64,000 bases of DNA from an uncultured Pseudomonadota bacterium (GCA_902763155.1 CACWQS010000002.1:240203-304202); one strand, 5' to 3'. Positions 1-8,967 are shown, counted from the stretch's first letter. Notes: a model not told the origin generated them from the sequence alone. Translations and numbers: made by a program.

Positions 1-575
1 TGTTTTTGAATCCATTCCGATAAGTCGATTAGGCTTTTAGCAGTTCCCGTCCATATTGTATTCGGAGCTGCACTGAGCATTGGCGGCACCATATACACAC
101 CGATGGCATATAAAATAAGCACCGACATCATCATTAAGAATGCAGGATAAGCAATAGCATTAACAATCGGACGAATCATACGTGTCGAACCCTCAGATAC
201 TTTAATCAAGTTCAAAAGAGCACTTTCCAAATCGGCCACATCGCCCACCGAGAGCATCAAACGTTCGCGCGTCGGTGCCCAACCTTTTAAACAGTCGGAA
301 AACGGATGACCTTCTTGCAATGAGCGTCCCCACATACTTATGGCAATAGCCATAGGATCATTTGGTTTTCTTCCTTCTTCCGATATGCCGTTATATACCA
401 TATCAAGTGCGTTCATCAAAGAAAAGCGGTTTCTGAGTAGGGCCGCCAATTTACGATAGATTTTTAATCGTTTTTGGTTTGAGAGATTGCACATAATCTT
501 AGCATAAGTTAACAACCATTGGTTAGTGTTGCGCATAGCTTTATTAAACGCACTCTGTTTTTTGATTTCAGGCAT
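1..575 (-). CDS. Type IV pilus / T2SS inner-membrane platform protein (GspF/PilC/TcpE/BfpE-like), N-terminal part. The gene runs off the window start.
   Basis: Minus-strand ORF with ATG at 573-575. It is preceded by GGAGG (complement of 581-585), which overlaps the stop of the upstream ATPase gene. Translation begins MPEIKKQSAFNKAMRNTNQWLL. Position immediately downstream of the GspE-class ATPase is typical of platform genes. Confidence 0.5.
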   Translation of the reverse strand, partial: MPEIKKQSAFNKAMRNTNQWLLTYAKIMCNLSNQKRLKIYRKLAALLRNRFSLMNALDMVYNGISEEGRKPNDPMAIAISMWGRSLQEGHPFSDCLKGWAPTRERLMLSVGDVADLESALLNLIKVSEGSTRMIRPIVNAIAYPAFLMMMSVLILYAIGVYMVPPMLSAAPNTIWTGTAKSLIDLSEWIQK

Positions 576-584
576 CTTTACCTC

Positions 585-2294
585 CTAATAAATCGGGCGT
601 TGATCTAAAAGACCGCACCAACGTTCAACTTCATCTAAATCTAATATTCCTCTTAGCATCCGCTCAATAGCAGCTTCGCGTAAAGGTCGTCCGTCAAGTT
701 CACTAATCCAGTAGTCAATGGCATCTTTAATATTATTTTCAACCGTAAGTTTTAAAAAATAGCCATCAGGAATAATAATTTCAGGAACAGACATACGGCC
801 TATAATTCCTCTATTATTACAAAACTTACATCCGGGGCCACGTATGTAAGTATTTTCGATACCATAATCGCCGAGTGCAGTTTTCAAACGTTGATATGAA
901 GGATCATTCATACGCTCTTTGACTGAAATGCGGCAATACGGGCATAATTTTCTGAATAATCGCTGTGAAACAAGCCCTTTCATAATTTCCGGATCGCTTA
1001 ACATATACGGCTGCACTCCCATATCACGTAAACGCGTAACAATTGCCGGAGCTGAGTTGGCGTGCAAGGTTGACCACACGCTATGACCGGAAAGTGCGCC
1101 TTTAAACACTAGACTGGCTGCTGAAAGTGAACGAATTTCCCCGACCATCATTACATCCGGATCGGAACGCAACGCAGCCGAAAGGGCTTTGTTAAACTCT
1201 TCATCTTTTTCTTCTTCAGTATTAGCATTTGTCACCGGCATTTGTCGTGCCCCCGGAATTGGATACTCCGGCGGGTCTTCCACCGTAATCACGTTAATTT
1301 CGCCACTTCGTTCTTCTATCAGCTTAATCATGTTGCGTTGCAAAGTGGTCGATTTACCAGAACCTGTCGGACCGGCAATAATGTTTAAGCCAACGGCTGT
1401 TGCGCGCAGGCGATAAAACAAATTAATTTCGCGGTCTTCCAGACCCAAAGAACGCAAATCGCTGTTACCGTTCGGGTTATCATCAGCATAAAGTAGACGC
1501 ATCACCAAATATTGCGACCCGAATGCCACCGGATTAAATTGCAAACGAATTGCCAACACATTATGTGGCAATTTCAGCTTACCATTTGTGCCGCGTAACG
1601 GCGTTTCGCCAAGCTTTTGTGCCCCCTGAAACTCGTTTTGCGCATAGTTGGCATCGGAGATATCTGCCGAAGCAAATGCCGCACGAACAAAGGCTTCTCC
1701 CCATTCTTTTGAATATTCCAGCTCACGTTCCATCATGCCGTTATTACGAAAAAGGACTACAGACGAATCGGCAACAATTACGTGAATATCAGAAACTTTT
1801 TTCTTTGCGGCACGGGAAATTACATTCAAAAAGTCAATCTGCATTTGATATTCGGCGGTTTCTTCCACCGAAATGTTGACTTGACCGGTTCCGCGCTCGG
1901 CAAAAGCATAAATAGCTGCAATTTCGTGTGTCGAAACATATTGCGGATTTTTCATTAAAAGTTTACGCCGCTTAGCTGTCGCCGTAAAATTTAGTACTTT
2001 ACCATCAAAGCGGTGAGCATTATCAACAAGATAAGTGCCATCGGAGAAAAGCGCCAACATGCGACGCGTTTCCGGATCAACAGGAAGTTCACCATCCTCA
2101 AGTGTTAACAGTTTATTGCCAAATGCAAAAAGATCATCAAAAAAACTGTCTTTCTTGTTTTTAGCTGTTATTTCTTGTTTTTCTGCGGTTTGCTCAACCA
2201 AAGATGGAGATGTTGATGTGGACGAAGACTGAGCCGCAACATTATCTGTTGCGGCCATAGCAGATTGTTCCTTTGTTACAACATCTTCAGCCAT
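585..2294 (-). CDS. Type IV pilus / T2SS assembly ATPase (GspE/PilB/TcpT/BfpD class) with an extra N-terminal domain.
   Basis: Walker A GPTGSGKSTT. Asp/His boxes are present. C-terminal tetracysteine CPYC...CKFC zinc motif of GspE/PilB-class ATPases. The N-terminal segment RRMLALFSDGTYLVDNAH shares a module with the paralog genes at 9810-13604. Confidence 0.9.
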   Translation of the reverse strand: MAEDVVTKEQSAMAATDNVAAQSSSTSTSPSLVEQTAEKQEITAKNKKDSFFDDLFAFGNKLLTLEDGELPVDPETRRMLALFSDGTYLVDNAHRFDGKVLNFTATAKRRKLLMKNPQYVSTHEIAAIYAFAERGTGQVNISVEETAEYQMQIDFLNVISRAAKKKVSDIHVIVADSSVVLFRNNGMMERELEYSKEWGEAFVRAAFASADISDANYAQNEFQGAQKLGETPLRGTNGKLKLPHNVLAIRLQFNPVAFGSQYLVMRLLYADDNPNGNSDLRSLGLEDREINLFYRLRATAVGLNIIAGPTGSGKSTTLQRNMIKLIEERSGEINVITVEDPPEYPIPGARQMPVTNANTEEEKDEEFNKALSAALRSDPDVMMVGEIRSLSAASLVFKGALSGHSVWSTLHANSAPAIVTRLRDMGVQPYMLSDPEIMKGLVSQRLFRKLCPYCRISVKERMNDPSYQRLKTALGDYGIENTYIRGPGCKFCNNRGIIGRMSVPEIIIPDGYFLKLTVENNIKDAIDYWISELDGRPLREAAIERMLRGILDLDEVERWCGLLDQRPIY

Positions 2295-7412: not shown

Positions 7413-7455
7413 CGTATTTTCCTATAATACATGTTGATTTCTGTAAACGTAACCT

Positions 7456-8967
7456 CTAATACCAAGGGCTTTTCGCCTTTTCGGCTACTTGCGTTTTTTC
7501 TTCGTTTGTAACATAGCGTACATTCCTAATAATAAACGAGTTTGGCTCTCTATCCGTAAAAATTATATTAACTTTCCGATATTCCACACCATTATTCGCC
7601 AAAATCCTATACAATAAGTTCAACCTTTTTTGCTGCAATTCATACGAAGCGTTGCGATCCAGACGAATTTCAATCGCTACATCATCATATTTTACCACAT
7701 TTTCCGAAAATGCTTTAATCCACTCCAAAGTTTGTCCGGAAATCTCTGCTCGATTAGCCTGAAATGACAACTTTAGCTCAGTCGGCGCAATATTATCTTT
7801 GCTGGCATTACCAAGTCCCAAAAGTTTGCGGAACAAAGATGATTCCTGTTGCCCCGAAGAGCGCGGGGCATCTTTACCGTTCTTTTGTTCACTGGTATTG
7901 CTGTTTTGGTCAGATTTTTTTCGATCGCCGGAAAACCATGCGGCAATACTGTCTGTCAAGCTTTCGGGTTCTTCTTCCGATAATTCACCTTCATTTTGCC
8001 CACCGGAATTTCCCAAATTGTTTTTTTCTGTTTTTTGAGCAGGTGCCAAGTCATTATCACTTGCGTTCAAAGGCGGTAAACCGCGCTTGCGTCGTAACTC
8101 TTCTTCCAACTTGATATTTTCCGCCGAAGATGAAAATTGCGGAGTTAAATTTTTATCATTGGCAATTTCATCAGGTATCGGAATCAAAATATTTTTTTGC
8201 ATTTTATAAGGAACGCTGTTACCGGTTGTCGGAGCCTGTTTATCTGCAATCTCGGCATTTTTATTGCGAGTTTGATTTTTGTTGGCGACTTCGGCAACTT
8301 CCCAAGGATCATCTTGCGGTAAATCATTTTGTGCCAGTTGCACTGCCGGTTGGCTTGTTGCTCCCAAATTTTCCAGCGGAATATTGTTACCAGCCGATGC
8401 TATCTGATTGGTTTCAGCTTTTTGTGAAACTTTTACGCTGTCGTTTTCCGGAGCGAAACTGTGGATAAGCGGAATTTCAAAAACAGTCGCTTGCGCCGCA
8501 TCAACAATCTTAAATTCTTCCGAACTTTCCGATTTTGCAGATTCAGTATCTTGTGCATCGTTTTGTGTTTCTACCGGCGGTAAAACAGCTGCATCAACAA
8601 TCGGTGAAGCATTTTCTGCTATGGTCTGTGTCGTTTTTTCTGCTATATCATCTTCCGGTGCAAATAAAATGCCGTCACTCGGAGCATCATCGGCAACGAG
8701 CAACTTATCATCGGCATCAGAGTTTGCAATAACCGCTTCATCTTCAATATTATCCTGTCCGGTTAATTGATTGTATTTTTCTAAAATCGGATCGCTCTCT
8801 TCTGTGGCGGCAAAAAGCTCTATCGTCCTTGCTTCATCTTGCGCGATGTTGACTGTCTTATTTTCATTATCCGCAGATAACAAAAAATACGACTTGGTTG
8901 CCGCTACAACGGCAACTAAAGATAAAACAAAGCTTCCTAAAAAGCATTTTAAACCAAATTTTGGCAT
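7456..8967 (-). CDS. Secreted protein with a long acidic low-complexity region and an OmpA/MotB-like C-terminal domain. First gene of the pilus operon.
   Basis: N-terminal signal peptide. The C-terminal …EIRLDRNASYELQQKRLNLLYRILANNGVEYRKVNI… resembles the OmpA-like peptidoglycan-binding fold. Confidence 0.5.
   Translation of the reverse strand: MPKFGLKCFLGSFVLSLVAVVAATKSYFLLSADNENKTVNIAQDEARTIELFAATEESDPILEKYNQLTGQDNIEDEAVIANSDADDKLLVADDAPSDGILFAPEDDIAEKTTQTIAENASPIVDAAVLPPVETQNDAQDTESAKSESSEEFKIVDAAQATVFEIPLIHSFAPENDSVKVSQKAETNQIASAGNNIPLENLGATSQPAVQLAQNDLPQDDPWEVAEVANKNQTRNKNAEIADKQAPTTGNSVPYKMQKNILIPIPDEIANDKNLTPQFSSSAENIKLEEELRRKRGLPPLNASDNDLAPAQKTEKNNLGNSGGQNEGELSEEEPESLTDSIAAWFSGDRKKSDQNSNTSEQKNGKDAPRSSGQQESSLFRKLLGLGNASKDNIAPTELKLSFQANRAEISGQTLEWIKAFSENVVKYDDVAIEIRLDRNASYELQQKRLNLLYRILANNGVEYRKVNIIFTDREPNSFIIRNVRYVTNEEKTQVAEKAKSPWY

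Follow-up and report, generated by a model that had tools for sequence, protein, structure and literature searches.

We describe the predicted type IVb pilus assembly operon that occupies positions 1-8967 (minus strand) of a 64,000-nucleotide (nt) stretch of DNA, hereafter the window, from an uncultured Pseudomonadota bacterium (GCA_902763155.1, CACWQS010000002.1:240203-304202). Seven tightly packed minus-strand open reading frames (ORFs) lie there, each at the place assigned to it by an initial annotation made from the sequence of the window, and they are followed beyond position 1 by an eighth gene, which codes for a pilin-like protein.

The operon and its products

Gene starts were taken from calls on L001, a metagenome contig identical to the window (window position = 12295 - L001 position). 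In operon order, the eight genes are:

7456..8967, minus strand: gene 1, an OmpA/MotB-fold protein of 503 amino acids (aa), identified by an AlphaFold2 (AF2) model and Foldseek
6690..7412, minus strand: PilL/TcpQ-like lipoprotein, 240 aa (PF10671, lipobox)
5126..6703 or 5126..6724, minus strand: PilN-family lipoprotein secretin, 525 aa (ATG at 6703) or 532 aa (TTG at 6724, the longest ORF) (PF00263, TIGR02520)
3856..5103, minus strand: PilO2/BfpC-type bitopic inner-membrane protein, 415 aa (PF06864, BfpC 3vhj)
2304..3866 or 2304..3908, minus strand: enlarged PilP-like coiled-coil protein, 520 aa (start at 3866) or 534 aa (start at 3908) (gene position, weak TIGR03021 match)
585..2294, minus strand: PilQ/BfpD-class ATPase, 569 aa (PF00437, BfpD 8dze)
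1..575, minus strand: PilR platform protein, the first 191 of 374 aa, cut by the window edge (PF00482)
L001 12846-13391, equivalent to 551-1096 nt past window position 1: PilS-type pilin, 181 aa (AF2 and Foldseek)

With the L001 starts, the distances between the first seven genes are +43, -14 (overlap), +22, -11 (overlap), +9 and +9 nt, and the pilin ORF begins one base past the PilR stop codon. These seven short or overlapping junctions point to a single compact operon; its GC content of 39-43% throughout matches that of the remainder of the window. The protein labels first given to the seven window genes hold, five of them by profile matches, that of the coiled-coil protein with a weak match to PilP, and the OmpA label by fold alone. 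The proposed type IVb class also stands: the secretin, the TcpQ-like lipoprotein, PilO2, the ATPase, the platform protein and the pilin fold all fit it; the ATPase is nearest to BfpD, the secretin is of the PilN family, and PilO2/BfpC and TcpQ are type IVb-specific parts.

The ATPase matches the T2SSE family (PF00437) in Pfam at 218 bits and displays a Walker A motif (GPTGSGKST), intact catalytic motifs and four invariant cysteines (C451, C454, C489 and C492). Its nearest solved structure is the type IVb ATPase BfpD (8dze; 306 bits, E = 4e-90), which aligns over aa 49-561 with the N-terminal domain included, as against 169 bits for GspE and 140 bits for PilB. The platform protein matches T2SSF (PF00482) in the part that lies within the window, and its full 374 aa (L001 11720-12844) contain two T2SSF repeats.

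The secretin matches PF00263 at 62 bits, above the gathering score, and its top NCBIfam model is that of the PilN-family type IVB secretins (TIGR02520), at 285.9 bits, marginally under the cut-off of 287.65; this gives it a lead of 160 bits over any other secretin family, with 126 bits for MshL and 46 bits for GspD. It is 26-29% identical over its full length to plasmid PilN and BfpB proteins, and its lipobox (ITVAC) is found in 36 of 37 relatives. The 240-aa protein encoded upstream of it matches TcpQ (PF10671) in Pfam at 61.5 bits (8e-17; gathering score 27), retains an L-x-G-C lipobox (LTGC) in 35 of 36 relatives, and has a TcpQ domain 29-41% identical to that of its TcpQ counterparts in pil clusters on plasmids; it is likely to be the partner or pilotin of the secretin.

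The bitopic protein belongs to the PAP_PilO family (PF06864; 63.7 bits, cut-off 26.7, aa 23-391), and its N-terminal domain matches BfpC (3vhj, E = 1.8e-5). It is predicted to comprise a cytoplasmic actin-like N-terminal domain, a single transmembrane (TM) segment and a periplasmic domain, the assignment of the actin-like fold being taken from the literature (PMC3984277). The next gene sits between those of PilO2 and the ATPase, that is to say, in the PilP/BfpU position, and encodes a protein with a signal peptide ending in AYS/QD (here and below a slash marks the cleavage site) and a sub-threshold match to TIGR03021 over aa 351-441 (26.3 bits, cut-off 34.65). At 520-534 aa it is two to four times longer than its plasmid counterparts (143-306 aa).

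The window contains no pilin gene, as first reported; the candidate is the 181-aa ORF that directly follows PilR in L001. Taken by itself, this protein has no family match, Pfam PilS included; among its homologues, however, 13 of 27 match Pfam PilS (best E = 5.6e-6). Its AF2 model reaches a predicted local distance difference test (pLDDT) score of 86, and the top five matches of the model in the PDB are CofA and the PilS of Salmonella Typhi (Foldseek probability 0.96-1.0, template-modelling score about 0.5). Two cysteines, C120 and C169, are invariant, and the gene lies where PilS lies in plasmid type IVb clusters, for example in that of a Thalassospira plasmid. By its modelled fold, its position and its family, the protein is predicted to be a type IVb pilin.

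At the other end of the operon, gene 1 encodes a protein with a TM helix (aa 6-32), an acidic disordered linker of ~350 aa and a C-terminal domain (aa ~395-500). Since all sequence searches came back empty (no match in Pfam, NCBIfam or the PDB, even with a 24-sequence profile, and in particular none to PF00691), its OmpA label was settled by structure prediction: an AF2 model built with 36 homologues shows a beta-alpha-beta-alpha-beta-beta C-terminal domain (pLDDT 75-87), for which Foldseek retrieves MotB, OprF, OmpA and Pal from the PDB (E = 7e-6 to 1e-3, probability 1.0). The protein shares with the MotB, Pal and OmpA anchors the N-terminal TM helix, the linker and the C-terminal OmpA-like fold; it is unlike them in the absence of a PF00691 match, in the length of the linker, in a diaminopimelate-binding Asp that is not conserved and in a distinctive MPKFG motif. 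Gene 1 heads the operon in every relative whose contig reaches that far. It has 887 homologues, none of them named, and none was recovered from 72,556 plasmids; it is specific to this clade.

The N-terminus of gene 1 (window 8953-8967), with the consensus MPKFG[LW]KCF.GSF, is near-invariant over the 36 homologues, residues M1, P2, G5, K7, C8, F9, S12 and F13 being invariant. It resembles a short prepilin-type leader: it ends in Gly, and the hydrophobic helix that comes next has no Glu5. This leader-like Gly is better conserved than the Gly(-1) of the pilin.

The closest parallels of the operon as a whole are the thin pilus of R64 (IncI1; PilL-PilV) and its relatives on chromosomes or integrated elements, pilL2-pilM2 of PAPI-1 and Tfp7 of Burkholderia pseudomallei (the Tfpb 'R64 variant'), which have the same core set in the same order; shared with this class are TcpQ/PilL, PilN, PilO2 (PF06864), the position of PilP, PilQ, PilR and PilS. 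The order TcpQ-N-O-P-Q-R-S recurs in the Thalassospira plasmid (TcpQ-PilN-PilO2-hypothetical-ATPase-T2SSF-pilin) and matches that of the R64-variant operons (PMC3984277), with full-length protein identities of 23-36% between the window operon and its plasmid homologues. Unlike the R64 class, the window operon is devoid of the PilV adhesin, the shufflon, PilM, PilU and a lytic transglycosylase, and it has in addition the first gene with MotB-like topology and the enlarged PilP-like protein. The bundle-forming pilus (BFP) locus of enteropathogenic Escherichia coli (BfpG-B-C-U-D-E) provides the nearest relatives of the ATPase (BfpD), the PilO N-terminal domain (BfpC) and the full-length secretin (BfpB), and both it and the toxin-coregulated pilus (TCP) locus of Vibrio cholerae (TcpQ-C-R-D-S-T-E) show the same lipoprotein-secretin-bitopic-small periplasmic-ATPase-platform order. 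They differ in having the pilin gene first, a peptidase (BfpP, TcpJ) and minor pilins within the operon, and a canonical class III pilin signal; they are also virulence loci of enteric Gammaproteobacteria, unlike the window operon. The tcp/bfp-like gene order recognized in the initial annotation is upheld and can be refined to the R64 thin-pilus/BFP arrangement.

Conservation and association with type IV secretion genes

The distribution of the system was scanned in one genome per species with the pilin family as query, and the family was found in 40 species-level assemblies, all of them metagenome-assembled genomes (MAGs). Most carrier records are labelled as uncultured (alpha)proteobacterial MAGs; four labelled Bacteroidaceae, [Ruminococcus] gnavus or Eubacteriales are taken as bins labelled in error. 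The samples named come from cattle, sheep, goat, deer and yak (rumen or gut), from humans (gut) and from horses (faeces). We take the clade to be the GTDB order RF32, the records themselves saying uncultured Alphaproteobacteria, Rhodospirillaceae or Azospirillaceae; a literature search on type IV pili of RF32 or of gut Alphaproteobacteria returned no relevant papers.

The eight-gene order is the same in all loci, as far as each contig goes. Across the 40 species, identity to the window proteins is 80-96% for PilR, 73-90% for PilQ, 65-89% for PilO, 53-84% for PilN, 45-84% for the pilin and 35-73% for gene 1. The ratio of nonsynonymous to synonymous substitution rates (dN/dS) against the nearest relative ranges from 0.014 for PilR to 0.16 for the PilP-like gene, the fastest-evolving in the operon, with 0.08 for the pilin, all of these being rough values as dS is saturated. 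No homologue of the pilin was found in the 72,556 plasmids; the secretin matches 3061 plasmid records, with identities of at most 29% among the best-matching records listed. The operon is flanked by core genes (rplQ, dnaE, parAB and gidAB), and no integrase or tRNA junction was seen at its flanks in the window and L001. These neighbours, together with relatives that are mostly (alpha)proteobacterial MAGs, bear out the alphaproteobacterial chromosome first suspected as the source of the window. The operon is core-chromosomal and vertically inherited, unlike the R64-type plasmid clusters, and is, as far as genes allow one to predict, an old and functional system, neither a recent island nor a relic.

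Genes for parts of a type IV secretion system (T4SS) were seen both in the window and in relatives. Within the window they show no link to the operon, VirD4 and VirB8 being encoded 15-46 kb from it. In three of the five lineages examined (L050, L051 and L053), a T4SS operon of the form virB2(x2-3)-virB3-virB4 is divergently oriented, head-to-head with the pilus operon; it encodes two to three TrbC/VirB2 paralogues, VirB3-sized ORFs and an 809-aa VirB4, and also holds four to five paralogous unknowns (216-467 aa) and a gene for a protein of >1300 aa. Furthermore, in most relatives (most of L012-L049) the next gene past that of the pilin is a convergent one for a PilT/PilU-like ATPase of 321-326 aa, a position occupied in the window lineage by a 264-aa multi-TM protein and dnaE. 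The relevant features are:

Window 23561-25771: VirD4
Window 54896-55672: VirB8
Window 61158-61925: ankyrin protein
L050 1-9478, L051 1-9663 and L053 1-9880: divergent T4SS operon upstream of the gene 1 homologue
L017 10752-11717 (minus strand) and L012 11020-12000 (minus strand): PilT/PilU-like ATPase

An identification of the convergent 321-aa ATPase as VirB11 was rejected on the scores (121 bits for PilT/PilU against 52 bits for VirB11).

Predicted function and alternatives

On the strength of genes and models, we consider it probable that this chromosomal operon specifies the assembly of a type IVb pilus (a type 4 filament) of the R64-thin-pilus/BFP class, and that it is functional and vertically inherited in its host, an alphaproteobacterium of the gut or rumen that has not been cultured. 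If its parts act as their homologues in BFP, TCP and R64 do, PilQ would, as a hexamer, dock on PilR and on the actin-like domain that PilO2 has in the cytoplasm, and would power both the removal of the pilin from the membrane that anchors it and the polymerization of the pilin. PilO2 and the long coiled-coil PilP would bridge the periplasm as far as the secretin; the TcpQ-like lipoprotein would aid the placement of the secretin in the outer membrane, and gene 1 would anchor the machine to the cell wall in the manner of MotB for the flagellar stator. Type IVb pili are paired with T4SSs in R64 and PAPI-1 (PMC3984277), a likeness that the relatives of the window share in having a T4SS physically associated with the operon. 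By analogy, the most economical inference would be that the type IVb pilus is functionally paired with the VirB/D4 T4SS; its most likely role would be to provide cell-to-cell or cell-to-surface contact in support of that system, as the R64 and PAPI-1 pili do in conjugation.

Several observations weigh against this reading. The T4SS adjacency that had been proposed for the window holds in the three relatives with head-to-head virB2-virB4 genes; in the window lineage itself the pilus operon adjoins neither a T4SS operon nor a PilT-like ATPase, and L052 is also without an adjoining T4SS operon. The identity of the PilP-like protein is based on gene position and a sub-threshold match, and the peptidoglycan-binding Asp of OmpA-like domains varies in gene 1, in which Arg448 is invariant. 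No minor or initiator pilin (PilV, TcpB, CofB or BfpI-K) was found in the operon or its flanks in the window, L001 and 44 related loci, each of which comprises the operon and up to 10 kb past one end, downstream of the pilin. Nor was a Peptidase_A24/prepilin peptidase (PilU, BfpP or TcpJ) found in the same set, inspection for peptidases and pilins having covered ~74 kb of this genome. The peptidase checks consisted of Pfam annotation, a tblastn search in which two A24 peptidases from plasmids served as queries, and a scan for the motif GxGD[VAILFM]K; the latter two, run on the window, L001 and 40 loci, gave spurious matches inside the ATPase only. Thus, of the pilin and peptidase anticipated beyond position 1, the pilin is present and the peptidase was not found near the locus.

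The pilin itself also departs from the long-leader prepilin with Gly(-1) that had been expected. When 106 sequences of the family are aligned on an invariant Asn-Pro, assumed to contain Pro22 of the mature pilin, Gly(-1) is seen in 70, the other 36 having Ser, Thr, Lys, Leu, Asn, Arg or Gln, and Glu5 is seen in none. The residue at -1 flips even between near-identical pilins (Ser in P0003 and Gly in P0005; Ser in P0049 and Gly in L029; Ser in L043 and Gly in L044). The window pilin, MKIYFSAEDFRENIWKS/VLLFLALIV..., has Ser(-1), Leu(+5) and no Gly at all in residues 1-35; it falls outside the bacterial class III signal as defined in PMC4471445 (Gly(-1), hydrophobic tract, Glu5), and a scan of the window and L001 for canonical signals of this kind produced two chance matches and no pilins. 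In contrast, the pilins of the plasmid type IVb comparators are canonical (KG/LSLIE and RG/LTLLE). According to a review (PMC4471445), the leaders of bacterial pilins 'invariably' end in Gly, a residue 'absolutely critical' if the leader is to be processed, and mutants in Glu5, among them those of R64 PilS, form no homopolymeric pili. As the window pilin is without both Gly(-1) and Glu5, it is probably used without prepilin-peptidase cleavage, and our best guess from its sequence is that the window lineage deploys it uncleaved. A bolder proposition, which we advance tentatively and judge unlikely to hold in full, is that a whole clade of abundant gut and rumen alphaproteobacteria operates its complete type IVb machinery with a never-processed, leader-retaining pilin that has neither Gly(-1) nor Glu5, and that this machinery is coupled, for contact with target cells, to a VirB/D4 secretion system encoded on the chromosome.

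The main alternative, of comparable, limited plausibility, is that the 181-aa PilS-like protein is an accessory or minor subunit, with a canonical major pilin and an A24 peptidase encoded elsewhere in the genome. A peptidase acting in trans is documented for R64-variant systems (PMC3984277). In the PAPI-1 of Pseudomonas aeruginosa, the chromosomal PilD processes PilS2; like the window operon, the PAPI-1 and Tfp7 clusters are without a peptidase. Moreover, most members of the family still have Gly(-1), which hints at a peptidase in at least some genomes, and the inspected part of this genome is the ~74 kb given above. However, in each of the 40 species the gene is found exactly where PilS is expected, a single base past PilR; its product has the size of a major pilin and the CofA/PilS fold and is under purifying selection, and no second pilin gene is seen beside the operon in any locus.

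A rather improbable alternative is that the machine functions mainly as an exporter similar to a type II secretion system (T2SS), with a short periplasmic pseudopilus made of the non-canonical pilin pushing substrates through the PilN secretin, in place of a long adhesive pilus. TcpF and CofJ are secreted proteins of two type IVb systems, TCP and colonization factor antigen III (CFA/III), respectively, and an export function would be in keeping with an operon without a minor or adhesin pilin or a lytic transglycosylase, with the absence of a retraction ATPase adjoining it in the window lineage, and with a pilin devoid of the Glu5 needed for homopolymeric pili (PMC4471445). The T2SS (Gsp) also shares superfamily parts with the operon, namely a GspE-like ATPase, a GspF-like platform and a secretin. 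An identity as a T2SS proper, which the initial annotation had named among the outcomes that would refute it, can be rejected: the GspD model reaches 46 bits and the GspE model 223, far short of their cut-offs (351 and 630, respectively) and below the type IVb relatives, and the window annotations include neither GspC/L/M nor the pseudopilins GspG-K. Further, no candidate gene for a secreted substrate is conserved in the operon, and the PilT-like ATPase encoded next door in most relatives is typical of dynamic pili.

We regard it as very unlikely that the operon specifies a competence pilus. DNA uptake is common among type IV filaments and was put forward as a role in the initial annotation, and yet it receives no specific support: ComEA, ComEC and DprA are linked to the operon in no locus, the ComGA and ComGB models score low, and a HofQ-type secretin model reaches 34 bits as opposed to 286 for PilN. 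The notion that the operon is a decaying, functionless remnant of an IncI/PAPI-1-like integrated conjugative element (ICE) draws on the usual plasmid or ICE setting of R64-type pil clusters and the 3061 plasmid records matched by the secretin, on the T4SS operon adjoining it in relatives, and on the missing peptidase, PilV and PilM, but is scarcely credible in view of eight genes intact in 40 species at the low dN/dS values given above, flanks made up of core genes (rplQ, dnaE, parAB) in which neither an integrase nor a tRNA junction was seen, and a pilin and gene 1 without plasmid homologues.

Type IVb pili are known mainly as traits of plasmids, ICEs or pathogenicity islands of enteric pathogens. 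If the locus is indeed a vertically inherited type IVb pilus operon, such a machine is here a conserved core-chromosomal trait of an uncultured commensal alphaproteobacterial clade of the human gut, rumen and horse faeces, and is likely to be central to attachment or to the delivery of T4SS substrates in these organisms. Its pilin departs from Gly(-1) and Glu5, two rules regarded as near-universal among the type IV pilins of bacteria. The other parts of the machine show constraint at a housekeeping level. Were the pilin to be used uncleaved, the clade would offer a natural experiment on the purpose of prepilin processing and of Glu5, and would point to a peptidase-independent mode of assembly or use of type 4 filaments. 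The MotB-like anchor and the giant PilP would be new parts for this class of machine.

Flanking genes

Upstream of the core gene rplQ lie three tandem paralogous genes that belong to no known family:

9810-10679, minus strand: first tandem paralogue upstream of rplQ, 289 aa
10695-12092, minus strand: second tandem paralogue, 465 aa
12249-13604, minus strand: third tandem paralogue, 451 aa

Each carries a domain that is 31-35% identical over 93-121 aa to aa 43-164 of the ATPase (BLASTP), and a profile comparison of the family with the N-terminal domain of the ATPase (aa 47-142) gives an hhalign probability of 96.9% (E = 1.5e-10). The family is small, with 58 cluster representatives only among 1.84 billion proteins. 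The N-terminal domain of BfpD-type ATPases is thought to dock on BfpC/BfpE. The tandem paralogues may act as regulators or competitors of ATPase docking, and a link to the pilus is possible. The paralogues encoded downstream of virB4 in the relatives were considered as members of this family and rejected, there being no tblastn match. A scan of the spacer between rplQ and gene 1 for a promoter or terminator was uninformative.

On the other side of the operon, the gene order after the pilin in L001 is a convergent gene for the 264-aa multi-TM protein, dnaE, parB, parA, gidB and gidA. The 264-aa protein was considered as a cryptic peptidase and rejected, having no family match and being absent from the relatives. 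In L052 (positions 1-4296), a giant autotransporter of >4650 aa is encoded ~6 kb upstream of the pilus operon. Directly upstream of VirD4 in the window (19416-23547, plus strand) are three ORFs of 657, 161 and 448 aa without Pfam or NCBIfam matches; these could be divergent T4SS components or substrates.

At ~14700-15220 of the window, the sign of the GC skew switches, and the genes turn from the minus strand (to 14.7 kb) to the plus strand (from 15.2 kb). The cumulative GC-skew minimum is near 14 kb, with parAB and gidAB ~20 kb off, beyond position 1; the switch may mark a replication origin, but no cluster of DnaA boxes was found there. Further along the window are genes for NrdD (class III ribonucleotide reductase) and its activase (49360-52439), a membrane H+-pyrophosphatase (58559-61048) and phosphofructokinase (62751-63827), which suggest an anaerobic lifestyle that would fit the gut or rumen origin of all relatives.

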